DNA from: Geobacter sulfurreducens PCA
Lineage (GTDB): Bacteria > Desulfobacterota > Desulfuromonadia > Geobacterales > Geobacteraceae
Direction: 5' to 3'
Length of the DNA stretch: 32,000 nt
Assembly: GCF_000007985.2 (NCBI RefSeq)
Contig: NC_002939.5
Span: forward strand, 1,500,001-1,532,000
A program made the translations under genes and the position numbers. This document shows, in pieces, positions 8,592 through 27,800 of this stretch (within the stretch, counting starts at the first letter, position 1; each line of letters begins with the position of its first letter). The notes below the pieces were generated by a model. That model saw only the letters and a program-made list of their open reading frames with translations. It made no database searches and was not told where the DNA came from.

Positions 8592-10583
8592 ATGGGAATG
8601 TTCGAGCGGAAGCGCTCTCTCCCCGCCGATGGCACTCCGGCCGGCGCCGTCACCAGGAAAGTGGCCCTGGTGGGAAACCCCAACGTGGGGAAAAGCGTCC
8701 TGTTCAATGCCCTGACCGGGGCCTATGTGGCGGTTTCCAACTATCCGGGAACTTCGGTGGAGGTTTCCCGGGGGTCCGCCTCCTTCGAAGGTGGCTCCTG
8801 GGAGATCATCGACACCCCCGGCATGTACTCGATCTTGCCGATTACCGAAGAGGAGCGGGTTGCCCGTGAGATTCTCCTGACCGAGCGCCCCGACGTGGTA
8901 CTCCACGTGCTCGACGCCCGAAACCTGGAGCGGATGCTGGTCATGACCCTCCAACTGGTGGAGGCGGGACTGCCGGTGATCCTGGTGGTGAACATCATGG
9001 ACGAGGCGGAGCGGATGGGACTTGAGATCGACATCCCGCTCCTGCAGGAGAAGCTGGGCATCCCGGTCATCGGCGCCGCCACGGCCAAGAAGCGGGGGCT
9101 GCCCGAGATCAGGAAGGCCATCGCCTCCTGCGATGCCGCGCACCACGCCAGTTTCGGCTACAGCCGCCGCCTGGAAGGGGACATCGCCGAGATCGCCGGG
9201 CTGCTCAGCGGGGAGTACACCCTTTCCGGCAAATCTCTGGCGCTGCTGCTGCTCCAGCGGGACGAGGAGATCGCTGCTCTGGTGGCCGGCAAGGAGGGGG
9301 ACCGGGCCGGGGCAATTGCTGAGAAGGTGAGGGAGAAGACCTTCGAGCGCCGGGAATCCTTTCACCTGGACCTGTCCCTGGAGCGCAAGGGGATCGTCAA
9401 GGGACTCCTGGCCGGCGTGCTCAGGACCCCGGAAAAGCGCCGGGTCACCGCGGGCGAGCGGCTTTCGTCCTGGGCGGTGCATCCCCTGACCGGCGTGCCG
9501 CTGCTGCTGGCGGTGCTCTACTACGGCCTCTACCAGTTCGTGGGGGTCTTCGGGGCCGGCACCCTGGTGGATTTCCTGGAAGGGACCCTGTTCGAGGAGT
9601 ATTTCAACCCCTGGATCATAGGCGTCGTCAACGGCATCGTGCCCTGGGAGATCATCCGGGAGCTGATCGTGGGTGAGTACGGAATCATCACCCTGGGGCT
9701 GCGCTACGCCGTGGGGATCATCCTCCCCATCGTGGCCACCTTTTTCCTGTTCTTCTCGGTGCTGGAGGACAGCGGCTACTTCCCGCGCCTGGCCCTCCTG
9801 GTGGACCGGATCTTCAAGAAGTTCGGCCTCACCGGCCGGGCGGTGATCCCCATGGTGCTCGGCTTCGGCTGTGACACCATGGCCACCATGGTCACCCGCA
9901 CCCTGGAAACCACCCGCGAGCGGATCATCGCCACGGTGCTCCTGACCCTGGCCATCCCCTGTTCGGCCCAGCTGGGGGTCATCATGGCGCTTCTTTCCCA
10001 GGCTCCGGGGGCGCTGCTGGTCTGGAGCGTCTGTCTCCTGCTGATCTTCCTGGTGGTGGGGTTCCTGTCGGCCAAAGTGATGCCCGGCGAAACCCCCATG
10101 TTCTACATGGAACTGCCTCCCATGCGGCTGCCCCAGCTCTCCAACGTCATGACCAAGACCTACACCCGCATGCAATGGTACTTCATGGAGATCCTGCCGC
10201 TCTTTATCCTGGCGTCGGTGCTGCTCTGGCTGGGCAAGATCACCAACTTCTTCGACAAGCTCGTCAACTGGATGGAGCCGGTCATGGCCTTCATCGGCCT
10301 TCCCCGCGACGCTGCCGTGGCCTTCATCTTCGGGTTCTTCCGCCGCGATTACGGCGCCGCCGGCCTCTATGACCTCCAGACCAAGGGGCTCATGGACCCG
10401 CGCCAGCTGGTGGTGGCGGCCGTGACCCTCACCCTGTTCGTCCCCTGTGTCGCCCAGTTCCTCATGATGAAGAAGGAGCGGGGACTCAAATCGGCCACTC
10501 TGATTGCCCTGTTCGTCTCCGTGGTGGCCGTCGGCTCGGGCTGGGCGCTCAACCGCTTCATCCTTTTCACGGGGATCCTGTGA
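8592..10583 (+). CDS. feoB: Ferrous iron transporter FeoB (N-terminal G domain plus polytopic membrane domain)
   Basis: 663-aa ORF with a G1 motif GNPNVGKS, a G3 motif DTPG and NIMD (G4-like). Multiple TM helices and the gate-motif region follow. GAGGAG RBS lies at 8579-8584. Confidence 0.95.
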   Translation: MGMFERKRSLPADGTPAGAVTRKVALVGNPNVGKSVLFNALTGAYVAVSNYPGTSVEVSRGSASFEGGSWEIIDTPGMYSILPITEEERVAREILLTERPDVVLHVLDARNLERMLVMTLQLVEAGLPVILVVNIMDEAERMGLEIDIPLLQEKLGIPVIGAATAKKRGLPEIRKAIASCDAAHHASFGYSRRLEGDIAEIAGLLSGEYTLSGKSLALLLLQRDEEIAALVAGKEGDRAGAIAEKVREKTFERRESFHLDLSLERKGIVKGLLAGVLRTPEKRRVTAGERLSSWAVHPLTGVPLLLAVLYYGLYQFVGVFGAGTLVDFLEGTLFEEYFNPWIIGVVNGIVPWEIIRELIVGEYGIITLGLRYAVGIILPIVATFFLFFSVLEDSGYFPRLALLVDRIFKKFGLTGRAVIPMVLGFGCDTMATMVTRTLETTRERIIATVLLTLAIPCSAQLGVIMALLSQAPGALLVWSVCLLLIFLVVGFLSAKVMPGETPMFYMELPPMRLPQLSNVMTKTYTRMQWYFMEILPLFILASVLLWLGKITNFFDKLVNWMEPVMAFIGLPRDAAVAFIFGFFRRDYGAAGLYDLQTKGLMDPRQLVVAAVTLTLFVPCVAQFLMMKKERGLKSATLIALFVSVVAVGSGWALNRFILFTGIL

Positions 10584-10762
10584 TCCGTTGCGGCTATTGC
10601 GGTCACGAATTCGCCGAGGAGGAGGGAATCCGCTCCTGCGGCAAATGCGGCAAGCCGGGTGGGTGCCGGATGGTGCGCTGCCCCAAATGCTTTTACGAGA
10701 ATCCGCCTGAAGCCAAGGCGCCGAAGACGCTCAGGAAAGTGATAGACTTGCTGAAGAAATAA
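10580..10762 (+). CDS. Small Cys-rich zinc-ribbon-like protein, translationally coupled to feoB
   Basis: 60-aa ORF MIRCGYCGHEF...CGKCGKPGGCRMVRCPKCFYENPP with seven Cys, including three CxxC pairs. Its GTG start (10580) overlaps the feoB TGA stop (10581-10583) as GTGA. Confidence 0.55.
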   Translation: MIRCGYCGHEFAEEEGIRSCGKCGKPGGCRMVRCPKCFYENPPEAKAPKTLRKVIDLLKK

Positions 10763-10795
10763 CCGGCCCAACCATACATGCAAAGGAGCACCCAT

Positions 10796-11440
10796 ATGAA
10801 GTTGTCCGACAAGGCAGAAGAAATCCTCGAAGCCCTCTGGATCGCCTGCGAGGAGGAGCGGAAGAGCCATCTGGAGATGGAGGAAATCAAAGTTCCCGCC
10901 GCTGATCCGGCTTACGGCGAACTGACCTCGCTGGCTTTCATCGAGGTCAGGGAGGCACGGGTCTACCTCCGCCCCGAGGGGAAGGACGAGGGGAAGCGGA
11001 CCGTCCGGCGGCACCGCCTTGCCGAGCGGCTCATGATGGACGTACTCAACATCCGGGGCGACCATGCCGAGGACAAGGCCTGCGAGTTCGAGCACCTGCT
11101 CCATGAAGGGGTCGACGCCAAGGTCTGCACCATGCTCAACCATCCCGCCACCTGTCCCCACGGCAAGCCGATCCCTCCGGGCGAGTGCTGCGACGAGGCC
11201 CGCAGGAGCGGCGACCTGGGGGTGGTCCCCCTCACCGAGCTCAAGGCCGGCGAAGAGGGCGAAATCGCCTACCTGGCCACCGGCGACGACATCAAGATGC
11301 GCAAGCTCATGGCCATGGGGGTCCTGCCGGGCAACAACATCGTGCTCATGCAGGTCTTTCCGTCGTACATCTTCCGGGTGGGGTACTCCGAATTCGCCAT
11401 CGACTCCAACCTGGCGCGGGAGATCTTCGTGAGGAAATAG
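10796..11440 (+). CDS. ideR: DtxR/IdeR-family metal-dependent regulator with C-terminal FeoA/SH3-like domain
   Basis: I prefer the ATG at 10796 (MKLSDKAEEILEAL...), which has an AAGGAG RBS 7 nt upstream. The dimerisation/metal region reads RRHRLAERLMMDVL...EDKACEFEHLL. The C-terminal part reads LTELKAGEEGEIAYL...RKLMAMGVLPGNNIVLMQ...FAIDSNLAREIFV, typical of FeoA domains. The symbol is given by family and context only. Confidence 0.8.
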   Translation: MKLSDKAEEILEALWIACEEERKSHLEMEEIKVPAADPAYGELTSLAFIEVREARVYLRPEGKDEGKRTVRRHRLAERLMMDVLNIRGDHAEDKACEFEHLLHEGVDAKVCTMLNHPATCPHGKPIPPGECCDEARRSGDLGVVPLTELKAGEEGEIAYLATGDDIKMRKLMAMGVLPGNNIVLMQVFPSYIFRVGYSEFAIDSNLAREIFVRK

Positions 11441-11487
11441 GAGCAGACCCGCAACACGCTGAAGAAACATCCCTTGAGCAGTACCAG

Positions 11488-11527
11488 ACCGCCCGTGTCG
11501 GAGCCATCCGACCGGGCGGTTTTTTTG
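11488..11527 (+). terminator. Rho-independent terminator after ideR
   Basis: ACCGCCCG (11488-11495) pairs with CGGGCGGT (11513-11520), followed by TTTTTT. This separates the iron cluster from the exonuclease-cas genes. Confidence 0.8.
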
Positions 11528-11591
11528 TGCGTGCGCGGCCAGGCGGCGCACACTAAGGAAAAATACGTGAGAGATCAAGGAATTTCCTGAA

Positions 11592-11694: not shown

Positions 11695-12240
11695 ATGAAA
11701 AATCACCATCTCCAGGCAGCGATCGATGTGGAAACCACCGGCCTTTTCCCGGGATATGGCGACAGGGTCGTCGAAGTGGCTGCCGTCCTTGTGGACGAGG
11801 GACAAATCGTCTCGGAATTCAGCAGCCTGATCAGGGTAACAAAGGCGATCCCCCGCCACGTATCCATGATTCACGGCATCACCAACGACATGCTCGCCGA
11901 CCAGCCGCTGCCGGAAGAGGTCTACCCGGCTCTCGGAGATTTCATCGGCACGGCCCTGCTCGTGGCCCACAACGCCCGGTTCGATCTGGCATTCCTGCGG
12001 CACGAGTTCGGCCGGTTGGGATTGTCGCTGAACAGCCGGTCCGCCTGCACCCTGGAACTGGCCCGGCGCAGACTGCCGGAACTGACCGACCACCGCCTGG
12101 AAACCGTCTACCAGCACCTGTTCGGAGCCGTCCCCGAAGGGACCAGGTGCCACCGGGCGCTCGACGATGCGCGGCTCACGGCGCGGGTGTGGGGGGAGTT
12201 GGGGGGTGGGAAGGCTATGAAAAGTGGTGCTCTGCGGTAG
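11695..12240 (+). CDS. DEDDh 3'-5' exonuclease (DnaQ / DNA polymerase III epsilon-like), standalone, directly upstream of cas3
   Basis: 181-aa ORF. Exo I is AIDVETTG, Exo II is LVAHNARFDLAFL and Exo III is CHRALDDARLTA (H-x4-D). It is on the same strand as cas3, 80 nt upstream, with no terminator between. Confidence 0.9.
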   Translation: MKNHHLQAAIDVETTGLFPGYGDRVVEVAAVLVDEGQIVSEFSSLIRVTKAIPRHVSMIHGITNDMLADQPLPEEVYPALGDFIGTALLVAHNARFDLAFLRHEFGRLGLSLNSRSACTLELARRRLPELTDHRLETVYQHLFGAVPEGTRCHRALDDARLTARVWGELGGGKAMKSGALR

Positions 12241-12320
12241 TTGTGACTTGATTTGTCATAATGACATGATACTAACTGAACGCGATGATGGTGGCTTGCT
12301 TGGTTGCGTTGGAGGGGGAA

Positions 12321-14972
12321 ATGGAAAGTCTTACTGTCCCGGAGTATGTTTGGTATTGGGGGAAGGCTGAGAAGGATGCAGGCGGTTACCATCTCTTGCC
12401 GTACCATTGCCTCGACGTCGCGGCTGTGGCCGCAGTCTGGTGGGATGCGAGTCCGACTATCCGGCGCAGCTTCTCCAGTCATGCGAGTTGCTCCGAGGTT
12501 CAGAGCCGCGCCTGGCTGCTCTTCTTTGTCGCATTGCACGATTATGGCAAATTCGATCTGCGCTTCCAACTGAAGGTCAGGGAGGTGTGGGAGAAGCTGC
12601 ATCCGTTGGCAGGTCAGGGGGCAAGCCTGCCTTCGCAATTTGACATCAACCAATACCAGCACGGCGAGAGCGGCCTCTTCTGGTTCAAGAAAGATTTTTT
12701 CGCCTTAAACGGATGCGAGCCCACTGCTGATTCACTTTTTATCGACGATGAACCGCTCCAGTGGTCGAACTGGAAACCGTGGGTCGAAGCGGTGACGGGT
12801 CATCATGGCCATGTGAAACAGGCGGAATATGCAAGTGATGCGTCTCTTTCTGTTTCGGTCGACGGCAGATTCGCCGAGATCGATCAAACAGCCCGGAAAG
12901 AGTGGCTAAAAGCATTGGAGCAACTTTTCCTGCGACCGGCCGGCCTTTCCCTCGATAACGCTCCGCCTCCTCCATCGCCGCTACTGGCCGGATTCTGTTC
13001 CGTGTCAGACTGGCTGGCTTCCCGTTGCGACGACACCAATTTCTCCTTCCATCAGTCACCGCTGTCAATCTCGGACTATTTCACACAAAAATTCTCACAG
13101 GACGCTCCTGCCATCCTTGCTTTCTCCGGGCTTAACGGCACAGCCAAGAGCTACGGTGGCATATCCGACCTTCTCCCTGCCATCGCAACGCCTCGTCCAC
13201 TGCAAACCAAGGTCGATCAGTTACCGCTTCAGGACGGTTTGACCATCATTGAAGCACCGACCGGATCAGGCAAGACCGAAGCTGCCCTTGCCCATGCCTG
13301 GCGGTTGCTGGCTACCGGGCAAGCCGATTCGATCATCTTCGCGCTCCCCACGCAGGCCACTGCCAACGCCATGCTGGGCCGACTTGAATCGCTGGCTGAA
13401 CGTATTTTTACCAACAGCCCGAACCTCTTACTGGCCCATGGCAATGCCCGGTTCAACCGGACCTTCACGGACCTCAAGCGCAGAGGGTATAGCGACGTCG
13501 CCGACCCGGACGGCTGGACACAATGTGGGGAATGGCTGGCGGAGAGTCGCAAGCGGGTTTTTCTCGGACAGATCGGAGTCTGCACCATCGATCAGGTCCT
13601 GATTTCCGTATTGCCGGTCAAACATCGCTTCGTGCGTGGCCTTGGGGTGGGACGAAGCGTGCTGATCGTGGATGAGGTGCATGCCTACGACGCCTACATG
13701 TACGGCCTGCTTGAAGAAGTCTTGCGTCAGCAGCGCCAGTGCGGCGGCTCGGCCATCCTGTTATCGGCCACCCTGCCCGCAACGCTGAAGCAACAACTCG
13801 CAGCGGCCTGGGGAGACCAACGCACCGAATGCAACCCATCGGCAGCCTATCCGTTGTTGACTTGGCTCGGAAATGTGGATTTCCCGCCTATTTCGTTGGC
13901 TCGCCATGAAACGCCAAAACCGGTCACGGTTGAAATTGAAGCCCTGCGGCTTGAGGGAATGGAACCAGACCAGACCTTGCTCGCTCGCCTTGTCAGGGCT
14001 GCAGAGAGTGGCGCGCAGGTTGCGGTGATCTGCAATATGGTCAACGATGCCCAGAGAATCGCCGCTGCCCTGAGAGAGATGACATCCGCTCCGGTCGGCC
14101 TCTTTCATGCGCGTTACCGCTTCAAGGATCGGCAAATCAGAGAAAGCGAGGTCATCGACTGTTTCGGTCCCAGCGGCAAACGCGAACAGGGACGCATTCT
14201 GGTTGCCACTCAAGTTGTCGAGCAATCTCTCGATCTGGATTTCGATTGGCTGGTCACCCAGTTGTGCCCGGTCGACCTCCTCTTTCAGCGCATGGGGAGA
14301 CTGCATCGTCATCCACGCGCATCGCGACCTGCTGGGTATGACAAGCCAGTCTGCACTATCCTTCTCCCGTGCGAATGCAATTACGGCTACACCGGGAAAA
14401 TCTATGCGGATACCCGAGTGCTTTGGCGCACCGAACAGTTGTTGGCTTCCGCATCCGCCGGTCAGGTTACGTTCCCGGCTGCCTATCGGGAATGGATCGA
14501 GAGTGCCTATCAAGAGAAGTCTTGGGGTACAGAGCCAGATTTGGTGATTGCAGGGTTCGAGAAGTTCAAGGACAAAACCTGGAGTAAGACTTATAGCGCC
14601 AAGGAGATGATTCGGAAGGCATTTGAAATCACCCCCTTTTCGGATTCAGATGAAAATGTCACCGCCGTTACCCGTGACGATGAAATGGGGCTGACGGTGA
14701 TCCCGGTCATCGATTCGCCAAAGGGGCGGCGCTTCCTCGATGGTGGATTGCTTGGTGATCTGGATGAATTCCGCAGGGCAGAGGAGTTGGCTCTCAACAG
14801 TATCAATGTCCCTGCGCGCTGGAGTGGTTGGCTGAAAGCGTTGTGCGAAATTGACGACGAAAGACGATACTGGCTCACCATGACGGAACAAGGAGAGGGG
14901 TGCTATGTGCGTGAAGGGGAAAAGGTTGCTTTCAGGTATCACTGCGATACCGGACTGGAGAGGGTGAAATGA
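12321..14972 (+). CDS. cas3: Cas3 (HD nuclease plus SF2 helicase), type I-E
   Basis: The ORF frame starts at 12285. The ATG at 12321 follows a GGAGGGGG RBS. HD-domain motifs are LPYHCLDVAAV, ALHDYGKFD and GHHG. Helicase motif I is APTGSGKTEAA and motif II is DEVHAYD. The stop overlaps the cse1 start (ATGA). Confidence 0.95.
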   Translation: MESLTVPEYVWYWGKAEKDAGGYHLLPYHCLDVAAVAAVWWDASPTIRRSFSSHASCSEVQSRAWLLFFVALHDYGKFDLRFQLKVREVWEKLHPLAGQGASLPSQFDINQYQHGESGLFWFKKDFFALNGCEPTADSLFIDDEPLQWSNWKPWVEAVTGHHGHVKQAEYASDASLSVSVDGRFAEIDQTARKEWLKALEQLFLRPAGLSLDNAPPPPSPLLAGFCSVSDWLASRCDDTNFSFHQSPLSISDYFTQKFSQDAPAILAFSGLNGTAKSYGGISDLLPAIATPRPLQTKVDQLPLQDGLTIIEAPTGSGKTEAALAHAWRLLATGQADSIIFALPTQATANAMLGRLESLAERIFTNSPNLLLAHGNARFNRTFTDLKRRGYSDVADPDGWTQCGEWLAESRKRVFLGQIGVCTIDQVLISVLPVKHRFVRGLGVGRSVLIVDEVHAYDAYMYGLLEEVLRQQRQCGGSAILLSATLPATLKQQLAAAWGDQRTECNPSAAYPLLTWLGNVDFPPISLARHETPKPVTVEIEALRLEGMEPDQTLLARLVRAAESGAQVAVICNMVNDAQRIAAALREMTSAPVGLFHARYRFKDRQIRESEVIDCFGPSGKREQGRILVATQVVEQSLDLDFDWLVTQLCPVDLLFQRMGRLHRHPRASRPAGYDKPVCTILLPCECNYGYTGKIYADTRVLWRTEQLLASASAGQVTFPAAYREWIESAYQEKSWGTEPDLVIAGFEKFKDKTWSKTYSAKEMIRKAFEITPFSDSDENVTAVTRDDEMGLTVIPVIDSPKGRRFLDGGLLGDLDEFRRAEELALNSINVPARWSGWLKALCEIDDERRYWLTMTEQGEGCYVREGEKVAFRYHCDTGLERVK

Positions 14973-16489
14973 ATCTGCTGACCGAAGCATGGATACCTGT
15001 GCGGCCATTACCGGCCGGTGCGGCGTGCAAACTCACGTTGCGGCAACTGTTGTGCGAGGACGGCCGATGGGAGCTGTGCCTACCGCGCGACGACATGGAA
15101 CTGGCAGCCCTGCAATTGCTGATCTGCATGACGCAGGTTTTCTTTCCGCCGCAGAGCACTGCCGCGTTGAAACAGCGGATAGTTGCTCCGTTGTCGTTGG
15201 ATGAGTTTGAGAGCGGTTGTGCGCCCTATCGCGAGTGGTTCCGGCTCGACCATCCCGACTTTCCGTTCATGCAGGTGCGCAACGTCAGCGCCAAGGACCC
15301 GACTCCCATGGATAAGTTGCTGGCGGGACTGACGGGGGCGACAAACAGTTGCTTTGTGAACGAACCGGGGTTGGGCGCCTGCTTGTGCGGTGGCTGCGCG
15401 GCCATCGCCCTGTTCAACCAGTCATCCAATGCGCCGAGTTTTGGCGGCGGGTTCAAGGGGAGTCTGCGCGGTGGAGCGCCGGTGACAACTCTGGTGCAAG
15501 GTGAACATTTGAGGCAAACCGTCTGGCTCAATGTCTTGAGTGAAGAGCGTCTGACACAAATTATCCCGTGGCATCACGCAACACGCAGTCAGCAACCGAC
15601 CTGGGTTGCACCAATCAAGGCGGGCGAGACAATTCCATCACAAGCAATCGGCGTACTGCGCGGGCTCTTCTGGCAGCCGGGACATCTTGAACTGATGCCG
15701 CCGCAGGGAGAACAAGCTTGTATCTGTTGCGGTTTTGTCGAGAAACAGGTTTATGCGGGATTCAACAAGGCAAAGTTTAACTACACCATCGACGGACTCT
15801 GGCCCCACCCCCACGGCCCCCGTATCAGTTCGGTGAAGAAGGGAGAGCGGGAAGAAAAATTTGTTTCCTTCACCACCGCAGCCCCGGCTTGGACCCATTT
15901 GAGCCGGTTTGTCGTGCAGCGGCAAACGACCAACAGTAAAGAGGAAGGTCAGGAGCCGGCCGCGGTGGTGCGGCAGGCGCAGGGACTACTCAATAAGTTA
16001 CGCCTGGCAGTCGGTGGCTACCGCAACAATCAGGCATCGATTCTTGAGCGGCGCCACGAACTGATTTTTCTCAATGACGGCTGGAGCGGGCATACAGAGG
16101 TGGTGCATGCGCTGGTCGGACAGGCGGTCGGGTATCGCGATGCACTGAATAAGGCGCTTTTTGTATTTTCCACGGGCTTCAAAGAGATCAAGGGAGCCGG
16201 CGTTAAGGTTCATGAATTGGCTAAGGAGCAATTCTACCGCCGTAGTGAAGATACGGTTCTCGATACCTTGGCACGCATCGACTTTGAACAAGCAGCCCTG
16301 GCATTGCTGGCAATGGGGGATGGGCTCCACGGTATTGTCGTTGGGCTTTTTAATGAGTCGGTCGCACCCTACCGCAACGATCCGGAATTAATCCGTACCA
16401 CAGCCGTGGCGCGTAAGACACTGTACAAGCATTTAAATGCACTCAAACCACAACGGGATGGAAGGAGGGACGATGGAACGAACGCATGA
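14969..16489 (+). CDS. cas8e: Cas8e / Cse1 (CasA), Cascade large subunit
   Basis: 506-aa ORF. The N-terminus MNLLTEAWIPVR is typical of Cse1. Its position between cas3 and cse2 fits, and there is a 4-nt overlap with cas3. Confidence 0.9.
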   Translation: MNLLTEAWIPVRPLPAGAACKLTLRQLLCEDGRWELCLPRDDMELAALQLLICMTQVFFPPQSTAALKQRIVAPLSLDEFESGCAPYREWFRLDHPDFPFMQVRNVSAKDPTPMDKLLAGLTGATNSCFVNEPGLGACLCGGCAAIALFNQSSNAPSFGGGFKGSLRGGAPVTTLVQGEHLRQTVWLNVLSEERLTQIIPWHHATRSQQPTWVAPIKAGETIPSQAIGVLRGLFWQPGHLELMPPQGEQACICCGFVEKQVYAGFNKAKFNYTIDGLWPHPHGPRISSVKKGEREEKFVSFTTAAPAWTHLSRFVVQRQTTNSKEEGQEPAAVVRQAQGLLNKLRLAVGGYRNNQASILERRHELIFLNDGWSGHTEVVHALVGQAVGYRDALNKALFVFSTGFKEIKGAGVKVHELAKEQFYRRSEDTVLDTLARIDFEQAALALLAMGDGLHGIVVGLFNESVAPYRNDPELIRTTAVARKTLYKHLNALKPQRDGRRDDGTNA

Positions 16490-16916
16490 TTTCATGGGCC
16501 TCTATCAGGCATGGGAGCGGCTGGCTCCGGGCCCGAGAGCCGAGTTGCGCCGAGTCGAACGCCCGGACGATCTACTGGAAGTGCCGGCTTTTTATCGGCT
16601 CTTCAGCGGTCGGGGAACCACGGAGTGGGAAAAGGGAGCCTACCAGAGACTGATCTTCTGCCTGCCGTGCATCAAACACAGCGGCGAGAATATCAGCCTG
16701 GGCAGAGCGTTGGCCAAGGGGAGGGGCGTTGGCGAAAAACGTCTTTTTCAGGTTGTGCGCAGCAGCGAGCCCAACGACATGATCCAGTTACGCCGGATTC
16801 TGCGTATGGCCGAACCGACCGTGAACTGGGATCTGGCGGCGCGACAACTCTGGTACTGGAATGACCGGAGCAAGCGCGACCTGCTCGAAGATTACTTCCT
16901 CAATCACTCGAACTGA
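16473..16916 (+). CDS. cse2: Cas11 / Cse2 (CasB), Cascade small subunit
   Basis: The ATG at 16473 follows a GGAAGGAGGG RBS (the ORF track gives an earlier ATG at 16437). The product is ~147 aa, Arg-rich and helical. It sits in the canonical position between cse1 and cas7e. Confidence 0.85.
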   Translation: MERTHDFMGLYQAWERLAPGPRAELRRVERPDDLLEVPAFYRLFSGRGTTEWEKGAYQRLIFCLPCIKHSGENISLGRALAKGRGVGEKRLFQVVRSSEPNDMIQLRRILRMAEPTVNWDLAARQLWYWNDRSKRDLLEDYFLNHSN

Positions 16917-16943
16917 TTTCAAACATCTATAGGAGATAGTTAC

Positions 16944-18038
16944 ATGAAGAACTTCATCAACTTTCACATCCTGATTTCCCACAGTCCCTCCTGCCTTAAC
17001 CGCGACGATATGAACATGCAGAAATCTGCTGTTTTCGGTGGTGAGCGGCGGGTGCGCGTTTCCAGTCAAAGCCTCAAACGGGCCATCCGAAAGAGTGATT
17101 ACTATCGTCAGCACCTTGGCGAAGCGAGTGTGCGCACCAAGAAGTTGGACGAACTGATCGCGATCATAAATGATCGTCTGGCCGGACGCTACGATACCGA
17201 CCTCCTGAAGAAGACTGTTGGGCTGCTGGCCGGCAAGGAGTTAAGTGTCGAGGTTGCGACAGAAGGTGATGCCGTGGCGCCGTGGGCAATCGAAGAGGTG
17301 GCATGGTTCTGTGAGCAGGTCAAGAGGATGGTGGCGCAAGGACAGGACGAAAAAGCTCTGGGCAAATTGTTGAAGAATGAAACGGCTGCCATGCGGCAGG
17401 CTCTGGCATCCGGTGTTGATATTGCACTTTCCGGCCGCATGGCGACGTCAGGTCTCATGAGTGAACTCGGCAAGGTCGATGGTGCCTTGGCCGTTGCCCA
17501 TGTCTTGACCACCCACAGCGTTGATGCGGATATCGACTGGTTCACTGCCGTGGATGACTTGCAGGAACTGGGCTCCGGTCATCTCGATACGCAGGAATTT
17601 TCCAGCGGGGTCTTTTATCGTTATGCCAGCCTCAACGTGAAGCAGTTGCAGGAAAACCTGGGCAATGCCCCGCGCGAGAAGGCACTGGAGATCGGCGCTC
17701 ATCTGCTTCACATGCTGGCAACGATTGTCCCTTCAGCCAAACAGCAGAGCTTCGCAGCTCACAACCTGGCCGACCTTGCCCTGGTTTCCTTTTCCGATAT
17801 CCCGGTATCGCTCGCAAATGCATTCGAAAAACCTGTCCGTAGCGTCAATGGCAGCGGCTTCAAAGAGCCTTCCATTGCTGAACTGCATAACTACTGGCAG
17901 CAGATCCATACAGGTTACGGCCTTTCCGAGCGGTGCGGCGAGTTCATCCTCGGTCAGAGTAGCGTCCCTGAAGGGATCACCCGGAAGAGTACTATTGAAG
18001 AACTCAAAACCTGGGTGATGAACAACGGAGAGGGGTAA
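16944..18038 (+). CDS. cas7: Cas7e (Cse4 / CasC), Cascade backbone subunit
   Basis: The N-terminus MKNFINFHILISHSPSCLNRDDMNMQKSAVFGGERRVRVSSQSLKRAIR is nearly identical to what I recall for E. coli CasC. Confidence 0.97.
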   Translation: MKNFINFHILISHSPSCLNRDDMNMQKSAVFGGERRVRVSSQSLKRAIRKSDYYRQHLGEASVRTKKLDELIAIINDRLAGRYDTDLLKKTVGLLAGKELSVEVATEGDAVAPWAIEEVAWFCEQVKRMVAQGQDEKALGKLLKNETAAMRQALASGVDIALSGRMATSGLMSELGKVDGALAVAHVLTTHSVDADIDWFTAVDDLQELGSGHLDTQEFSSGVFYRYASLNVKQLQENLGNAPREKALEIGAHLLHMLATIVPSAKQQSFAAHNLADLALVSFSDIPVSLANAFEKPVRSVNGSGFKEPSIAELHNYWQQIHTGYGLSERCGEFILGQSSVPEGITRKSTIEELKTWVMNNGEG

Positions 18039-18040
18039 CC

Positions 18041-18721
18041 ATGCGTGATTATCTGATCCTCAAGCTGCAAGGACCCATGCAGTCATGGGGGGAGCATACT
18101 TTCGAGGGAAAGCGACCGTCCGGCAATTTCCCCACACGTAGCGCCCTCCTCGGCCTGCTCGGGGCCTGCCTGGGCATCAGGCGAAACGAGGCCGGTCGCC
18201 TGCAACAACTGGCAGACAGCGTTGCCTTTGCCGTTCGTAAGGAAGAACGCTTCCGAATTAGGCACGACGGCCGGAAAACTTCCCTGCCGATCATCAAGGC
18301 AACCGATTACCACACGGTGAGGGATGCGCGGGAGGATTATTTCGGCCTGAAAAGCCATGAGACCATTCAGACTTGGCGTGAATACCTGTTCGATGCTACC
18401 TACACCGTGGCCGTCTGGAATACCGACGTTGCGACGATATCGCTGGTTGAACTGGAACAGGCCGTAAAGTCGCCCCACTTCACCCCCTATCTTGGTCGGC
18501 GCAGTTGTCCATTGTCCCGTCCGCTGTTCGAGATGAGCTTTTCTGCAGCGAATGCCTGTGACGCTTTGCGCATGATTCCTTCGGATGGTGGGGTGATCTA
18601 CAGTGAGGAGCCGGGCGAAACACGAACCATACGGCTTCGTGACGTGCCATTGGTGCGCCAGCCACGCCAGTTTGCCAGCCGCAACGTCCATGTCTATGGA
18701 GGGGTCGATGTATCTGAGTAA
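18041..18721 (+). CDS. cas5: Cas5e (CasD)
   Basis: MRDYLILKLQGPMQSWGEHTFEGKRPSGNFPTRSALLGLLGACLGI closely parallels E. coli CasD. Confidence 0.95.
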   Translation: MRDYLILKLQGPMQSWGEHTFEGKRPSGNFPTRSALLGLLGACLGIRRNEAGRLQQLADSVAFAVRKEERFRIRHDGRKTSLPIIKATDYHTVRDAREDYFGLKSHETIQTWREYLFDATYTVAVWNTDVATISLVELEQAVKSPHFTPYLGRRSCPLSRPLFEMSFSAANACDALRMIPSDGGVIYSEEPGETRTIRLRDVPLVRQPRQFASRNVHVYGGVDVSE

Positions 18722-19316
18722 AGTCTTGATCAACGGGACAGCCTGTCGCAATCCCTACGAGATTCATCGAGTGTTGTGGAAGCTCTTTCCCGAAGATGCC
18801 GATGCCGAGCGTGATTTTCTCTTTCGTGTTGAGCGATCCGGTCAACAGAGCGTGGAGGTGTTGTTGCAGTCCCGACGTGAACCTACTATGGCTGCATCTC
18901 GTGAAGTACTCTTGATGGGAAGCAAACCCTACCTTCTCAGCCTCCAGCAGGATCAGCAGCTGCGCTTTATGCTAGTCGCCAACCCGATAAAGACGATCAA
19001 CGACGAAAGCGCGAGACTAAATAGTGCCAATGAAATAAAGAAGTGCCGCGTTCCGCTGATTCGTGAGGAGGATCTGCGTGCATGGCTGAAACGGAAACTT
19101 GAGGGCGTGGCCGTCATTGAGGCGGTCGAGGTAGAAAAGCGGCCGGCTATGAACTTTCGTAAGGCCAGGGAAAAGCGGGTCGGTAAGGTACAGGCGGTTA
19201 GTTTTCATGGTGTGTTGTCAGTGACGGACCCCGTCGGGTTGATATCCCTGATCAATACCGGCATCGGCCCTGCCAAGGCCTTTGGCTGCGGTTTGCTATC
19301 GCTGGCTAGGACATAA
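18708..19316 (+). CDS. cas6e: Cas6e (Cse3 / CasE) crRNA endoribonuclease
   Basis: The ATG at 18708 gives MYLSKVLINGTACRNPYEIHRVLWKLFPEDADAERDFLFRVE, matching the E. coli CasE N-terminus (MYLSKV...FP...RDFLF.VE). The C-terminal GIGPAKAFGCGLLSL motif is present. It overlaps cas5e by 14 nt. Confidence 0.95.
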   Translation: MYLSKVLINGTACRNPYEIHRVLWKLFPEDADAERDFLFRVERSGQQSVEVLLQSRREPTMAASREVLLMGSKPYLLSLQQDQQLRFMLVANPIKTINDESARLNSANEIKKCRVPLIREEDLRAWLKRKLEGVAVIEAVEVEKRPAMNFRKAREKRVGKVQAVSFHGVLSVTDPVGLISLINTGIGPAKAFGCGLLSLART

Positions 19317-19486: not shown

Positions 19487-19957
19487 ATGCTGCCAAGCCG
19501 AAAACGTCTCGTTCTTGAACAACTGGGGAAAACTCTCTCACGTTTCGCCGGACTACAAGCAGTATCTCCCCCGGCAAGGGGGTGGATACGAGCCATCCGG
19601 GAAGCGTTGGGGATGTCTGGCGTACAGTTTGCCGCCCGTTTGGGGGTGACGCCGCCACGGGTGACGGCGCTGGAACGGGATGAACTGTCCGGGGCCGTTA
19701 CCATGAAGACCATGCGCCAGGCTGCGGAGGCTCTGGATTGCGTGTTTCTCTATGCTCTGGTGCCGCGCACGAGCCTTGAGGAAACCATTAGGAGGCAGGC
19801 GGAGGCCGTGGCGCGTGAGCGCCTGTTGCGGGTGTCCCACACCATGATGCTGGAAAGCCAGCAGCTCTCGGAAGAGGAGATGAAACAGGCGCTGGATGCT
19901 GCGGTGGAGGAACTGGTGCGGACTATGCCGAAAGATTTGTGGAGCAAAGCCCCATGA
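19487..19957 (+). CDS. XRE-type helix-turn-helix protein (antitoxin/regulator-like partner of the Fic protein)
   Basis: 156-aa ORF. The HTH region is GWIRAIREALGMSGVQFAARLGVTPPRVTALERDE, followed by a helical acidic C-terminal half. The stop overlaps the start of the next gene (ATGA at 19954-19957). The architecture matches what I recall as the TIGRFAMs 'mobile mystery protein A' family; this is unverified here. Confidence 0.8.
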   Translation: MLPSRKRLVLEQLGKTLSRFAGLQAVSPPARGWIRAIREALGMSGVQFAARLGVTPPRVTALERDELSGAVTMKTMRQAAEALDCVFLYALVPRTSLEETIRRQAEAVARERLLRVSHTMMLESQQLSEEEMKQALDAAVEELVRTMPKDLWSKAP

Positions 19958-20538
19958 ACTTCGAGTACCCCGACGGGGCAACTCCTCTTGATTCAGATGA
20001 GGCTGAAGGGCTTCTCCTGACGCATATTACCTCACGCGGCGAGCTGGATCGCTGGGAGCAGGAAAATATCGCGGAAGGGGAGGCCTGGGCTTTCGGACGC
20101 AGGCAGAAGAATATCCTGAGCGAAGCCTTTATTCGTCGTCTGCATAAGCGGATGTTCGGCCATGTATGGCGTTGGGCCGGAGAGTTCCGCAGAAGCGACA
20201 AGAATATCGGCGTCACGTGGTGGCAGGTGCCGATTGAACTACGCAAACTGTGCGACGATGTTGTCGCCTGGATAGCGTTCGGCACCTACCCGCCCGACGA
20301 GATTGCCGTGCGGTTCCATCACCGGCTGGTGGCCATACATCCGTTTGCCAACGGCAACGGCCGGCATGCCCGGACCATGACCGACCTGTTGCTCGTCCAG
20401 GCTCTGCAGCGTCCTCGATTTACCTGGGGAAGCGGCAATCTCGTCAGTGTCGGCGACTGCCGGCGCTACTATATCGAAGCGCTTCGCGCCGCCGACCGGC
20501 ATGATTATCAACTTCTGCTGGAATTTGTGCGGATGTGA
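19954..20538 (+). CDS. Fic-domain protein (AMPylase/toxin-like)
   Basis: I prefer the ATG at 19954 (ATGA overlap); the ORF track gives GTG at 19939. A canonical Fic motif HPFANGNGRHAR (HxFx(D/E)GNGRxxR) lies at nt 20338-20373. An (S/T)xxxE(G/N)-like SDEAEG lies at nt 19993-20010. It resembles what I recall as 'mobile mystery protein B'; this is unverified. Confidence 0.88.
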   Translation: MNFEYPDGATPLDSDEAEGLLLTHITSRGELDRWEQENIAEGEAWAFGRRQKNILSEAFIRRLHKRMFGHVWRWAGEFRRSDKNIGVTWWQVPIELRKLCDDVVAWIAFGTYPPDEIAVRFHHRLVAIHPFANGNGRHARTMTDLLLVQALQRPRFTWGSGNLVSVGDCRRYYIEALRAADRHDYQLLLEFVRM

Positions 20539-20565
20539 TCCTGATTTGCCAAGGAGGTGTCAGCA

Positions 20566-21772
<1,207 letters not shown>

Positions 21773-21846
21773 CGAAACCTGTGAGAAAAGTTGGTAGGTT
21801 TGAGTTGTTTGGAAATTGCATGTGAATTCAATGATGTAGAGGAAGT
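21773..21846 (+). promoter_or_regulatory. CRISPR leader (74 bp between the cas2 stop and the first repeat)
   Basis: The segment is relatively AT-rich (…GTTGTTTGGAAATTGCATGTGAATTCAATGATGTAGAGGAAGT) and directly abuts repeat 1. Repeat orientation matches the E. coli I-E repeat (…CCCCGC…GCGGGGAT.AACCG), so transcription runs on the + strand. Confidence 0.7.
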
Positions 21847-24800
21847 GTGTTCCCCGCATGCGCGGGGATGAACCGATCGCCCTGGAGACCACCGCCCGTG
21901 ACGGCGAGTGTTCCCCGCATGCGCGGGGATGAACCGAGCCGGCGTTCAAACGCGACACTGGCGGCCGAGTGTTCCCCGCATGCGCGGGGATGAACCGGCC
22001 TGTTCCCCCTCGTCGGCCAGGTTGTTGTGGTGTTCCCCGCATGCGCGGGGATGAACCGTCGTCGAAGACATGGACCAGGCCGACGCCGTAGTGTTCCCCG
22101 CATGCGCGGGGATGAACCGTGCTCTCCGGGCTCTCCGGTCTGGTGAATTTCGTGTTCCCCGCATGCGCGGGGATGAACCGGTTTCCGGTCGCAGCATGGA
22201 GCCGATGATCGTGTGTTCCCCGCATGCGCGGGGATGAACCGCTCACCCAATGACCTGGTACTGCCCGGTATATGTGTTCCCCGCATGCGCGGGGATGAAC
22301 CGCTTCTGTCGCTCACGCTCAATGCGGTCCGTACGTGTTCCCCGCATGCGCGGGGATGAACCGCAACGGATCGACTACTGGGACTGCACTGTTTAGTGTT
22401 CCCCGCATGCGCGGGGATGAACCGATTACGCGCATGCCAGCTCCAACCATGCTCGAGTGTTCCCCGCATGCGCGGGGATGAACCGGGGGTAAAGGGGGGC
22501 ATGATGCCCCCCTCTGCTGTGTTCCCCGCATGCGCGGGGATGAACCGGCCGTTACCGGTAACCCCGGTCGTTATGATGGGTGTTCCCCGCATGCGCGGGG
22601 ATGAACCGACAGTAGCAACGATAGCGAGAGAAAGGAAAATGTGTTCCCCGCATGCGCGGGGATGAACCGGTGCTCTCGGTTCCGGTAAGACATACTATGC
22701 TGTGTTCCCCGCATGCGCGGGGATGAACCGATATTTTTGGTAATCAGCAGGGTTTTTAGTCGGTGTTCCCCGCATGCGCGGGGATGAACCGACGATACAG
22801 CAGACGATACAGGAGCAAGGACAGTGTTCCCCGCATGCGCGGGGATGAACCGTACCAGGAATGTGTTTAGAACGCTCGAGAGCCGTGTTCCCCGCATGCG
22901 CGGGGATGAACCGTTCAATGGGTTGATTTGATGGATTCCAAGCTTGTGTTCCCCGCATGCGCGGGGATGAACCGTGCCGGGGGGGTGGCGCCGGCGGTGG
23001 TGTCTTGTGTTCCCCGCATGCGCGGGGATGAACCGGTACCGGGCCGCTCCTCCATGACCAACGCCAAGTGTTCCCCGCATGCGCGGGGATGAACCGGTCG
23101 GCAGCCGGCCCTGGGTGCTCTCCTCGGGGTGTTCCCCGCATGCGCGGGGATGAACCGTAGACCTCTGCAGCGCCTTTGCCACTGCAGCAGTGTTCCCCGC
23201 ATGCGCGGGGATGAACCGTCGGCAGCGGTAAATCCGTCATGCGCCGCAAAGTGTTCCCCGCATGCGCGGGGATGAACCGCCCCTTGTCGCTGCCGGACTT
23301 TTTCTTCAGGTGTGTTCCCCGCATGCGCGGGGATGAACCGTCAGCCGGGCCGCCGACCCCAGCGCCCGGGAGGTGTTCCCCGCATGCGCGGGGATGAACC
23401 GGCCCGGTCTGGCGGGCCGACCAGATCATCACCGTGTTCCCCGCATGCGCGGGGATGAACCGAACCAGTCGGTGGCGTCGGTCTGGAAGGGGTTGTGTTC
23501 CCCGCATGCGCGGGGATGAACCGTTCAACCCATATATGGGACTATGCGGCTAGGCGTGTTCCCCGCATGCGCGGGGATGAACCGGAGGCGTAAGCATGGC
23601 AACAGAGACTCAGAACGTGTTCCCCGCATGCGCGGGGATGAACCGAGCTAGGCGACATCTCGTCTTTTGTCCGTGCCGTGTTCCCCGCATGCGCGGGGAT
23701 GAACCGCACGACTCACCGCCTGGCTGGCGGCCGACGAGGTGTTCCCCGCATGCGCGGGGATGAACCGTATTCCCAGGTTAGCGGTTGCAGCCACAGCATG
23801 TGTTCCCCGCATGCGCGGGGATGAACCGCCATCAGCAACGCCGCAGACCGCGCCGGCATCGTGTTCCCCGCATGCGCGGGGATGAACCGGCTGGTTCATG
23901 GGGCGTTCACCTCCGCAGGCCGTGTTCCCCGCATGCGCGGGGATGAACCGAGGGCCGGGCCATGATCCAGGCCGACCTCGACGTGTTCCCCGCATGCGCG
24001 GGGATGAACCGGTTTTTCTGGAGGAGGTGCCCCCCTGGCATGCGTGTTCCCCGCATGCGCGGGGATGAACCGGCTGTGTCTGCTGTGATAATCTTGAGAG
24101 TGATGTGTTCCCCGCATGCGCGGGGATGAACCGGGCGAGGTTAGGCGGAGGCTGGAGAGCATCGCGTGTTCCCCGCATGCGCGGGGATGAACCGACGAGC
24201 CACTGAAACTCAGCCCCTGGCCCAGAGTGTTCCCCGCATGCGCGGGGATGAACCGGACCACGGCTACCTCAAGAGCGTGTTGAAATCGTGTTCCCCGCAT
24301 GCGCGGGGATGAACCGCTGCCCGCCTGGGGCTTGATCTCCAGCAGGCCGTGTTCCCCGCATGCGCGGGGATGAACCGCTGCGGGAACAGCAGGCCGAACG
24401 CCTGGGCCAGTGTTCCCCGCATGCGCGGGGATGAACCGACCCCGGCAACCTGACGTGCGGCGTTTGGGTCGTGTTCCCCGCATGCGCGGGGATGAACCGC
24501 TCGCCAGGGGGCAATCTTTGCTCCTGCCACGGTGTTCCCCGCATGCGCGGGGATGAACCGATGCAGATCCTCGTCGCCTACGATACCGCCGTGTGTTCCC
24601 CGCATGCGCGGGGATGAACCGCTCGCGGTCGGAGCTGCCGGTGAGGCGGCGCCGTGTTCCCCGCATGCGCGGGGATGAACCGTGCTCTGGCCCGACACGC
24701 CTCCTGAGCAGCGCGTGTTCCCCGCATGCGCGGGGATGAACCGCCCTCCCCATCCCTGGTCGTAACCCGAAGATTGTGTTCCCCGCATGCGCGGGGATGA

Positions 24801-27800
24801 ACCGCCCAGCGGATCGTCAACGACGAGCGGCACCTCGTGTTCCCCGCATGCGCGGGGATGAACCGGTGCGCGAGGGTATTTGCGGTCAAGGGCATCGGTG
24901 TTCCCCGCATGCGCGGGGATGAACCGACCACCGCCCCCATCACCTGGACCGGCGTCAAGTGTTCCCCGCATGCGCGGGGATGAACCGAAATTAACCACAC
25001 CGGACCGCTGTTTCTCAACGTGTTCCCCGCATGCGCGGGGATGAACCGATCCTGTCGAGGCCCTGCAACTCCTGGGAGAGGTGTTCCCCGCATGCGCGGG
25101 GATGAACCGGCGAATGCCGTTCGCCCGACCTACGGTCGGACGTGTTCCCCGCATGCGCGGGGATGAACCGGGGTCTGGTCCGGTGGATGTCTATCTGTGC
25201 AGGTGTTCCCCGCATGCGCGGGGATGAACCGATGCATTCGGGGAAAGCCCTTATCGTGACATTGTGTTCCCCGCATGCGCGGGGATGAACCGCAGATGAA
25301 AGGAACCTGAAAATGGCACTCAGAGTGTTCCCCGCATGCGCGGGGATGAACCGCGACACAGGATCGCGTCGCCAGTCTTGATCTCGTGTTCCCCGCATGC
25401 GCGGGGATGAACCGGGGTATAACCCGCCTATAGACGCCGACTACGCGTGTTCCCCGCATGCGCGGGGATGAACCGATACACAAGAATGGCCGGATCGAGA
25501 TGCCGAAGTGTTCCCCGCATGCGCGGGGATGAACCGTCAATATTTTAGTTTTGCTGGTCAGGCGTTTCGTGTTCCCCGCATGCGCGGGGATGAACCGCTC
25601 GTCAGCGCCATGCTCAAAGAGGCGGCCGGGTGTTCCCCGCATGCGCGGGGATGAACCGCTGGATATCACCGAGGGGGGCGCCGTTGTCCTGTGTTCCCCG
25701 CATGCGCGGGGATGAACCGTGTCCACCCCGTAATTTCCGAGACTTTTTTAGGTGTTCCCCGCATGCGCGGGGATGAACCGAATGCACCGTCCGCAATTAC
25801 CGCTTTAGCTATGTGTTCCCCGCATGCGCGGGGATGAACCGCCTTTGTAATAGTCGAAGCCGAACTCGACGCCGTGTTCCCCGCATGCGCGGGGATGAAC
25901 CGGGTGATGTACGCCCCACCATCAATTGAGACCTGTGTTCCCCGCATGCGCGGGGATGAACCAGCCGAGCACGACGAAGAGAAACTCCGCAAGTGGTGTT
26001 CCCCGCATGCGCGGGGATGAACCGATATGGGGAACTAAGTGGAACGCCTGTGAGTCGTGTTCCCCGCATGCGCGGGGATGAACCGCGGTATCAAATGAGG
26101 CCTTCCCCTCGTCAGGGGTGTTCCCCGCATGCGCGGGGATGAACCGTATAATGAAGAAGGGAGAATTGAACAATGGGTGTGTTCCCCGCATGCGCGGGGA
26201 TGAACCGAATCGCTTTGAGGTTCGTTGCTGGAACGAGGAGTGTTCCCCGCATGCGCGGGGATGAACCGATGAGGGCTGAAAACCCGGCAATCGAACCCTG
26301 GTGTTCCCCGCATGCGCGGGGATGAACCGGTCATTTCTGTTCTCCAGCCGCTATCGCCAGCGTGTTCCCCGCATGCGCGGGGATGAACCGGCGGCCTGGA
26401 GGCGGTCGACTCCTTCACGGCCGTGTTCCCCGCATGCGCGGGGATGAACCGATGTGCGGCCCCTTCTCCTTCGGTGACTACTCGTGTTCCCCGCATGCGC
26501 GGGGATGAACCGTTTATCGTTGCGAACCGACAGAGGGTGAAATAGTGTTCCCCGCATGCGCGGGGATGAACCGGTGAGTATGCAGCAATGAACATTTCTC
26601 TCCTTGTGTTCCCCGCATGCGCGGGGATGAACCCAGATGTGTGCTGAATTCAAGAACCCGCAAGGCGTGTTCCCCGCATGCGCGGGGATGAACCGGACAA
26701 AATCAGCGACATTACCACCGTTGGCGAGTGTTCCCCGCATGCGCGGGGATGAACCGGTATTCCCTATGGCCGGAAACACCATCATCGTGTGTTCCCCGCA
26801 TGCGCGGGGATGAACCGATCGAGGATCTGCTCGTCGGTGATGGTGCCATGTGTTCCCCGCATGCGCGGGGATGAACCGTAACCATGCCCGGATCACTATC
26901 GAGTACACCGGTGTTCCCCGCATGCGCGGGGATGAACCGCGCACGAATGTCCTCGGCCCTCCATGCCGTACGTGTTCCCCGCATGCGCGGGGATGAACCG
27001 CCGTTACGCCGACCGCCGAGTTTCGGCAAAATGTGTTCCCCGCATGCGCGGGGATGAACCGCACGGAAAAGAGCCCGACTCCGTGAACCAGGCGTGTTCC
27101 CCGCATGCGCGGGGATGAACCGCAGGATGGCGTCGAAAAATACTATCGCCGGTCGTGTTCCCCGCATGCGCGGGGATGAACCGGAGTACGACTGGGTACT
27201 CATCGACGAGGCGCAGTGTTCCCCGCATGCGCGGGGATGAACCGAGCGGGTAGATGTCCTCCCGGTACTGGGATGCGTGTTCCCCGCATGCGCGGGGATG
27301 AACCGGTGCCAAACAAGCCGTCAGTGCTTTTGGCGGGCGTGTTCCCCGCATGCGCGGGGATGAACCGCTTGAGCGACCGCTTCAGAATCGGGATGAGCCG
27401 TGTTCCCCGCATGCGCGGGGATGAACCGGCGTTGCCATCTGGGTCCTGATGCTCGACCGCGTGTTCCCCGCATGCGCGGGGATGAACCGGTTTGCCGATA
27501 CGTGCCGTCCCTGCGCCGACAGTGTTCCCCGCATGCGCGGGGATGAACCGTACCCTCACTAAAGGGCAACAGCACGATTCAAGTGTTCCCCGCATGCGCG
27601 GGGATGAACCGCGCTGGCTCACCCTGGCGCAGGGTCTCCGACAGTGTTCCCCGCATGCGCGGGGATGAACCGATGAGGGATGCTTCCGAAGGTAAGATTG
27701 AGGCGTGTTCCCCGCATGCGCGGGGATGAACCGAGGTTGGGTGTGGCTTCCTACGATTTTGAGCAGTGTTCCCCGCATGCGCGGGGATGAACCGACTGTA

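Follow-up and report, generated by a model that had tools for sequence, protein, structure and literature searches.

A standalone DEDDh exonuclease gene ahead of cas3 in the Geobacter sulfurreducens CRISPR2 locus, a candidate prespacer trimmer

Why should a gene for a DnaQ-like exonuclease stand directly ahead of cas3 in a CRISPR (clusters of regularly interspaced short palindromic repeats) locus? The case considered here comes from Geobacter sulfurreducens PCA, from a stretch of 32,000 nucleotides (contig NC_002939.5, positions 1,500,001 to 1,532,000; below, the window, with positions counted from its first letter), in which a standalone gene for a 3'-5' exonuclease of the DEDDh kind precedes a type I-E system. 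Where Cas4 is lacking, what is established about the sizing and orientation of new spacers comes from work on host nucleases, as in E. coli, and on DEDDh domains fused to Cas2. A third arrangement, a separate DEDDh gene in the cas locus itself, is listed in classifications, and we found no functional test of it in the searchable literature. The window places such a gene at the CRISPR2 locus of G. sulfurreducens. An earlier note, made from the letters of the window, had proposed that this gene encodes the unfused equivalent of the Cas2-fused enzymes, a trimmer of prespacers supplied by the locus. At stake is whether locus-encoded trimmers are general adaptation factors, helpers of Cas3 or dispensable passengers.

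The exonuclease and its neighbourhoods

The 181-amino-acid (aa) protein matches the Pfam family RNase_T (PF00929) over residues 9-165 (E=5e-32), and also many NCBIfam models of the DnaQ/PolC-exonuclease type. All three Exo motifs reported in the earlier note are there, D11-x-E13 (DVETTG) as Exo I, H92-N93-x2-F96-D97 (HNARFD) as Exo II and H153-x4-D158 as Exo III; an alignment of 36 sequences of the family shows no variation at D11, E13, D97, H153 or D158. An AlphaFold2 model of the protein (mean predicted local distance difference test score, pLDDT, 91; predicted template modelling score, pTM, 0.87), compared by Foldseek with solved structures, has the RNase H-like alpha/beta fold of DnaQ-type exonucleases, with template modelling (TM) scores of 0.8-0.88 against the Cas2-DnaQ domain, the PolC and DinG exonucleases, ExoX and epsilon. 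The Cas2-fused DnaQ domain of Streptococcus thermophilus comes first in this search (8h2f/8h18; E=4e-15, TM 0.83-0.88), barely ahead of PolC, DinG, ExoX and epsilon; as its lead is only marginal, the structure search does not separate functions. Judged by sequence and model, the protein is a catalytically complete, single-domain 3'-5' exonuclease.

The attachment of the gene to CRISPR, rather than to the ideR-like gene on its other side, can be read from the neighbourhoods of its relatives. A homologue search yielded 933 relatives, the closest 120 of which are nearly all ~165-200 aa long. One genome per species (GTDB) was scanned with the family profile, 10 kb was taken on either side, and open reading frames (ORFs) in six frames were searched with the type I-E proteins of the window and a type I-C set, gaps being filled with Pfam. 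Loci whose exonuclease is at least ~45% identical to the window protein were taken as orthologous; there are 45 at species level, 12 of them undecidable because contigs end within ~2 kb. A cas gene comes next downstream, on the same strand, in 27 of the 33 decidable loci, and the record titles of the cas-linked loci point to Syntrophales, Desulfobacterales, Geobacterales/Desulfuromonadales, Nitrospirota and Acidobacteriota. The six database homologues that were looked up individually all have cas genes downstream. As a control, 36 loci whose DEDDh genes are less closely related (<=44% identity), many of them encoding longer multi-domain proteins, gave no cas match at all.

Genes upstream of the orthologues are unrelated except between close relatives. 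The earlier note had named an accident of synteny with ideR among the things that could undo its proposal. This explanation was rejected: the ideR query matched none of 84 loci, the feoB matches were weak and none lay in conserved synteny, and no orthologue locus has ideR upstream. On the comparison of sequences, the gene is one that travels with cas operons; its CRISPR link is real and conserved, which supports its belonging functionally to the CRISPR-Cas locus.

In at least eight related loci the DEDDh gene is immediately preceded, on its own strand, by a gene for a helix-turn-helix (HTH)-WYL-WCX regulator, a kind with known CRISPR associations. The order there is WYL - DEDDh - cas3, which sets the DEDDh gene inside the locus in those genomes. 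In one locus (L019) the WYL gene lies downstream instead of upstream, and the window has no WYL gene.

The linkage extends over three CRISPR subtypes. Geotalea uraniireducens has a homologue, with 62% identity to the window protein, ahead of the cas3 gene of a type I-C system (cas5c, cas8c, cas7c, cas4, cas1, cas2), and three further loci (L026, L030 and L095) are likewise of type I-C; in Desulfobacterium sp. N47 the DEDDh gene stands before the cas1 and cas2-3 genes of a type I-F system. Both of two type I-E interference gene orders are found beside the family. A neighbour-joining tree intersperses members from type I-C and type I-F loci, and those without cas genes, with the type I-E ones, and the grouping tracks host lineage more than subtype. 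The co-occurrence with type I-E loci that the earlier note put forward as a check thus stands as regards cas linkage (27/33) and falls as regards subtype; nor is the family tied to the absence of Cas4, as it precedes Cas4-bearing type I-C loci and one of type I-F. Such a spread fits an enzyme whose DNA substrate is common to the subtypes better than one that depends on a protein contact peculiar to one of them, and prespacers held by Cas1-Cas2 are a substrate of that sort.

Some features of individual loci may be recorded here. Genes for DUF1016/YhcG, a PDDEXK nuclease, recur beside the family (L010 8714-9838 and 12019-13077; L031 4095-5186; L089 18349-19209). In L010 the exonuclease gene occurs a second time in truncated form (12019-12327), as does the DUF1016 gene; the duplicate copies flank an inserted segment, after which restriction-modification genes follow. 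One cas-linked homologue (P0117; L087/L088) comes from a metagenome bin labelled Methanoregulaceae archaeon (GCA_040776005.1), by transfer or by binning error; the type I-E locus there resembles the bacterial ones in the set.

Relation to known DEDDh enzymes

The closest solved structure by sequence is a standalone PolC-type exonuclease of Thermotoga maritima (2p1j; E=6.6e-25, 42% identity), a single-domain protein of 186 aa, close in size to that of the window; the name of the deposited entry indicates no CRISPR role. Much further off by sequence are ExoX, PolC, the Cas2-fused domain 8h18 (3e-12), E. coli epsilon (~5e-12) and the other fused domain, 8fyc (6e-12). Between themselves the two fused domains match closely (6e-45), their next relative being 2p1j, and the window protein is 28-30% identical to them. 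In 40 bootstraps the fused domains were paired every time and the window family was monophyletic in 31; an exclusive clade of the window family with the fused domains, of which two representatives only were available, appeared once. As the bootstraps so rarely join them, the family of standalone, cas-linked enzymes and the domains fused to Cas2 are separate recruitments from a PolC-exonuclease-like branch of the superfamily. In its evolutionary sense, the 'unfused equivalent' of Cas2-DEDDh is therefore not upheld, with 28-30% identity to the fused domains as against 42% to 2p1j and the joint clade in 1/40.

Likeness of another sort is retained. Cas2-DEDDh fusions are known from the type I-E systems of Megasphaera NM10 (8fy9/8fyc) and S. 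thermophilus DGCC7710 (8h18/8h2f), where the fused domain trims prespacer 3' overhangs in cis (PMC10284694, PMC10470216). They share with the window the DEDDh fold, the catalytic residues and a type I-E locus without Cas4. They differ in that the window DEDDh is separate from Cas2, the two genes standing at opposite ends of the locus with that for DEDDh 9.2 kb upstream, and in that its family is found also beside type I-C and I-F loci. With E. coli DnaQ, the epsilon subunit of DNA polymerase III, and ExoT, the window protein shares the standing of a separate DnaQ-family enzyme; the E. coli enzymes act in trans on prespacers bound by Cas1-Cas2. Theirs are housekeeping genes elsewhere in the genome, whereas the window gene is in the cas locus. 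The adaptation module itself is near that of E. coli, Cas1 being 68% identical to K-12 Cas1 over 299 ungapped residues, the C-terminal tail included.

That the gene might encode a replicative epsilon was considered and rejected, as the scores fall far below the equivalog cut-offs of the epsilon models (TIGR01406, 96.6 bits against 222.7; NF004316, 85.6 against 196). These models are 231-234 positions long, and the protein matches them only to ~position 174. Unlike epsilon, it has no C-terminal segment for tethering to alpha: the domain ends at ~residue 168, with ~12 low-confidence residues after it.

A passage of Wang et al. 2023, citing Makarova et al. 2020, describes standalone DEDDh exonucleases as widespread ancillary components (PMC10284694), and the window protein fits this 'DEDDh' ancillary class in having a conserved cas neighbourhood and an end-to-end match (3e-37, profile positions 2-138 of 139) to the PADLOC model PDLC01247, 'DEDDh; CAS-I..VI associated', a generic model that picks up any DnaQ-like protein. 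The clade is narrower than the class: its members are ~170-190 aa long, lie upstream of cas3 or cas1, often with WYL ahead, and are found mainly in Thermodesulfobacteriota and Nitrospirota. Standalone cas-linked DEDDh is thus an already catalogued kind of CRISPR ancillary protein. In the searchable literature we found nothing on this clade, its position upstream of cas3/cas1, its frequent WYL partner, its spread over types I-E, I-C and I-F, its origin apart from the fused domains or its presence in G. sulfurreducens CRISPR2.

The best PADLOC match of the protein is another model, PDC-S48 (1.9e-38), which comes ahead of the CAS 'DEDDh' model. PDC-S48 is a candidate defence protein of 411-512 aa with a DEDDh domain at its N-terminus, and many of the distant loci (L054-L083) encode proteins of ~460-500 aa that start with a DEDDh domain.

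What the enzyme may do

As the kind is already catalogued, the prespacer-trimmer hypothesis is the default expectation of the field; another passage of Wang et al. proposes the fused enzyme as a model for the unfused ones (PMC10284694). On this reading, which we favour, the DEDDh protein would be a CRISPR accessory exonuclease that trims prespacers held by Cas1-Cas2; the reading seems to us about evenly balanced between right and wrong. Even chances are likewise given to the enzyme being produced along with the Cas proteins, from the cas3 end of the locus. In outline, Cas1-Cas2 would bind a DNA fragment and shield a core of ~23 bp with short overhangs; the DEDDh exonuclease would trim the exposed 3' single-stranded overhangs up to the Cas1-Cas2 footprint; and the resulting ends could then be integrated, giving spacers uniformly of 32 nucleotides (nt). 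For types I-E and I-F the DEDDh enzyme would trim both ends, the one bearing the protospacer-adjacent motif (PAM) with a delay imposed by the Cas1 tail; for type I-C its task would be the non-PAM end, left uncut by Cas4.

Prespacers as the substrate and Cas1-Cas2 as the partner are what we infer. In E. coli, Cas1-Cas2 serves as the ruler while the 3' overhangs are shortened by exonucleases of the DnaQ family, the PAM end being protected longer (10.1101/608976; PMC10284694). In type I-C, Cas4 cuts the PAM end only, and cellular DnaQ-like exonucleases are presumed to trim the other end, a step that commercial ExoT is able to perform in vitro (10.1101/2022.05.30.494039). Unrelated DnaQ/ExoT enzymes do the trimming in vitro for both type I-E and type I-C (PMC10284694; 10.1101/608976; 10.1101/2022.05.30.494039). 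With a Cas1 so similar to that of E. coli, the model of a ruler and a DnaQ trimmer is transferable to this locus, which makes the trimmer role plausible. The absence of a nuclease domain from Cas2 and the tight spacer lengths of the array (139 of 142 at 32 nt) also speak for it. As the length would be set by the footprint of Cas1-Cas2, the enzyme would require no contact peculiar to a subtype, in agreement with a family that moves between subtypes. Co-variation leans weakly toward Cas1: DEDDh distances correlate with those of Cas1 at r=0.25 (p=0.017) and with those of Cas3 at r=0.04, in a Mantel test over 14 loci that is weak and underpowered, with Cas3 distances saturated and host phylogeny uncorrected. 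A special Cas1 lineage tied to DEDDh was also considered, as Cas1 looked unusually conserved in the DEDDh-bearing type I-E loci; Cas1 is simply a slowly evolving protein, the same 68% identity being found with E. coli K-12.

Several points besides the frailty of that test weigh against prespacer trimming. Six of the 33 decidable orthologue loci have no cas genes within 4-10 kb downstream, so that the DEDDh protein can persist without a neighbouring cas locus. The gene adjoins cas3 and so lies as far as possible from cas1-cas2 within the locus; translational coupling to cas3 is frequent, the DEDDh stop and the cas3 start overlapping by 4 nt in seven loci. The near absence of a joint clade with the fused trimmers, represented by two domains, points the same way. 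For standalone cas-encoded DEDDh enzymes, functional data were found nowhere in the searchable literature. E. coli does without a locus-encoded trimmer, and the need for one here is assumed; and a tight spacer length is, to our knowledge, typical of all type I-E systems.

The position of the gene is the starting point of a different reading, in which the DEDDh enzyme is a partner of Cas3 that degrades, from their 3' ends, single strands unwound and nicked by Cas3, for faster destruction of the target or for precursors of primed adaptation; position and coupling suit such a helper no less well than a trimmer. The gene is directly upstream of cas3 in both type I-E and type I-C, and to the seven overlaps may be added three of up to 25 nt, depending on the choice of start; in type I-F it heads the pair cas1 / cas2-3, whose products form one complex; and it is kept even beside type I-C systems that have a processing nuclease of their own in Cas4. 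Yet the upstream edge is the sole free edge of these loci, the leader and array following cas2, so that position says little. The gap to cas3, 28-130 nt in about eight loci including the window, widens to 260-1020 nt in about ten, mainly Geobacterales, and to 2.5 kb in L031; DEDDh distances do not follow the (saturated) distances of Cas3; and a profile search of 1.84 billion representative proteins, annotated with Pfam, showed no fusion to Cas3, Cas1 or Cas2 among its top multi-domain matches, which were tandem DEDDh/UVR/BRCT proteins, PolC and DinG-type helicases. We regard a partnership with Cas3 as rather unlikely. A version that joins it to adaptation makes the DEDDh enzyme a Cas3-coupled bridge from interference to primed adaptation, turning Cas3-derived strands into precursors for Cas1-Cas2 and portable among types I-E, I-C and I-F; if true, the coupling to cas3 and the retention across swapped subtype cassettes would reflect this bridging role. 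We think it unlikely.

It may also be supposed that the enzyme has no CRISPR role, being a general exonuclease of DNA repair or turnover that happens to sit in a defence island or at a hot spot for cas insertion. The six orthologues without cas neighbours are of this tenor, one (L010) amid restriction-modification genes and the others (L038, L040, L041, L045 and L046) amid ordinary housekeeping genes; so are the tree, which tracks host taxonomy with types I-C and I-E alternating beside closely related copies, and the presence of ubiD upstream in two Geobacterales loci of different subtype. A bystander would hardly be expected to be cas-linked in 27 of 33 decidable loci across five groups with unrelated upstream genes, while the distant DEDDh control loci show no such linkage (0/36); membership in the operon is further suggested by the overlaps of 4 nt with cas3 and by a location between WYL and cas3. 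We hold this improbable. The WYL-WCX gene directly upstream in at least eight related loci invites yet another view, that the enzyme clears a single-stranded signal (a WYL ligand, for example) and so resets cas expression, or that it trims CRISPR RNAs (crRNAs); RNase T-type DEDDh enzymes do act on RNA as well as DNA. The window itself lacks the WYL gene, however, the nearest relatives in sequence and structure are DNA exonucleases of the proofreading type, and we know of no need for 3' trimming of type I-E, I-C or I-F crRNAs; a regulatory or RNA role seems to us very improbable.

G. sulfurreducens is genetically tractable, and a knockout would be straightforward. As the family occurs beside Cas4-bearing type I-C and beside type I-F systems, a DEDDh knockout could tell the adaptation factor, the Cas3 helper and the passenger apart.

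The locus around the gene

All the expected parts of a type I-E system are present: cas3, cse1, cse2, cas7e, cas5e, cas6e, cas1e, cas2e and an array of 29-nt repeats (Table 1). The locus agrees with published descriptions of G. sulfurreducens CRISPR2 as type I-E, GSU1384-1393, with "143 spacers" (PMC7726332, PMC2923632). The DEDDh gene appears to have been left out of the published locus, as both papers start at cas3 (GSU1384); a literature text search for GSU1383 gave no match.

Table 1. Features of the window, with the WYL genes of related loci (last rows, positions within each locus)
Feature	Position	Strand	Evidence or remark
feoB	8592-10583		Upstream of DEDDh gene
DtxR/IdeR-type regulator gene with FeoA domain	10778-11440		Pfam Fe_dep_repr_C and FeoA
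Intrinsic terminator after ideR-like gene	11486-11528	+	Upstream boundary of locus
DEDDh (DnaQ-like) 3'-5' exonuclease gene, standalone	11695-12240	+	ATG start, 181 aa, PF00929
DEDDh-cas3 spacer, 80 nt	12241-12320	+	GGAGG ribosome-binding site before ATG 12321
cas3, type I-E (HD nuclease and helicase)	12321-14972	+	NF007248, 1367 bits; Cas3_HD, Cas3-like_C_2
Cascade gene block	14969-19316	+	Pfam
cse1/cas8e	14969-16489	+	Pfam CRISPR_Cse1
cse2/cas11	16437-16916	+	Pfam CRISPR_Cse2
cas7e	16944-18038	+	Pfam Cas_CT1975
cas5e	18041-18721	+	Pfam Cas_Cas5d
cas6e	18603-19316	+	Pfam CRISPR_assoc
Two-gene cargo at the cas6e-cas1 junction: 'mobile mystery protein A' (HTH) and 'mobile mystery protein B' (Fic)	19487-20538	+	
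Adaptation module, cas1e and cas2e	20557-21772	+	See each gene
cas1e	20557-21486	+	Cas_Cas1
cas2e, 101 aa, unfused	21467-21772	+	Cas_Cas2CT1978/TIGR01873; Cas2e domain alone
Leader, beside cas2	21773-21846	+	
CRISPR array	21847-30540	+	143 repeats of 29 nt, 142 spacers
WYL gene, L005	8941-9921		
WYL gene, L007	8594-9703		
WYL gene, L022	8949-9941		
WYL gene, L031	1599-2642		
WYL gene, L043	8907-9935		
WYL gene, L087	7807-8775		
WYL gene, L089	8048-9103		

The physical setting of the gene agrees with what the earlier note had read from it. Cas2 is short and free of any nuclease fusion, only the Cas2e domain being present. A strong terminator does separate the DEDDh gene from the ideR-like gene: the hairpin at 11486-11522, followed by U7, folds with -36.7 kcal/mol (z = -4.75), and none of 200 shuffled sequences is as stable; a simple scan for terminator patterns missed it owing to a bulge, and RNA folding found it. 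The gap of 80 nt to cas3, on the same strand, also stands. The cas3 ORF opens already at 12285, and the public gene call begins at window position 12321 (883 aa); GGAGG just before 12321 and the Cas3 model, which aligns from residue 17 of the longer ORF, speak for the public start and hence for the 80 nt. A scan of this gap gave no terminator, and its fold is weak and lacks a U-run. Another public record, AP028967.1, encodes an identical protein, there too in the order feoB-ideR-DEDDh-cas3.

Two further features of the gap may touch on the expression of cas3. It holds a near-palindrome, TGTCA-TAA-TGACA, at 12254-12266, and a sigma-70-like site, ATGACA-17-GATGAT, at 12261-12289; by their sequence these may be a candidate operator and promoter of cas3.

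The array is very large and its spacer lengths are tight, with 139 of the 142 spacers at 32 nt and the other three at 33 nt. Fourteen repeats, starting at 29657-30451 (to 30479) just ahead of the terminal repeat, carry the variant GCACATGCGGGG, and the terminal repeat differs by one change; the variant repeats thus lie at the far end of the array, consistent with a short leader beside cas2.

Between the interference and adaptation genes the locus carries cargo. Its two proteins match TIGR02612 (7e-68) and TIGR02613 (1e-98), with the Pfam domains HTH_3 and Fic, and the Fic protein matches the PADLOC candidate system PDC-S04 (5e-21). Relatives that bear DEDDh have other cargo at the junction of cas6e and cas1: Bro-N and Fic (L087), ParE/RHH (L085), RhuM/DUF1016 with PIN/VapB (L089), PemK/RHH (L094) and, in type I-C, Bro-N (L095). 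From these gene contents, toxin-antitoxin-like genes seem to have been inserted repeatedly at the interference-adaptation junction.

On the iron side of the terminator, feoB and the ideR-like gene are separated by a 60-aa ORF (10580-10762) that overlaps the feoB stop and that the public record calls as a gene. It has no Pfam match and many CxxC pairs (MIRCGYCGHEF...CGKCGK...CPKCF), by which it may be a small zinc-ribbon partner of FeoB.

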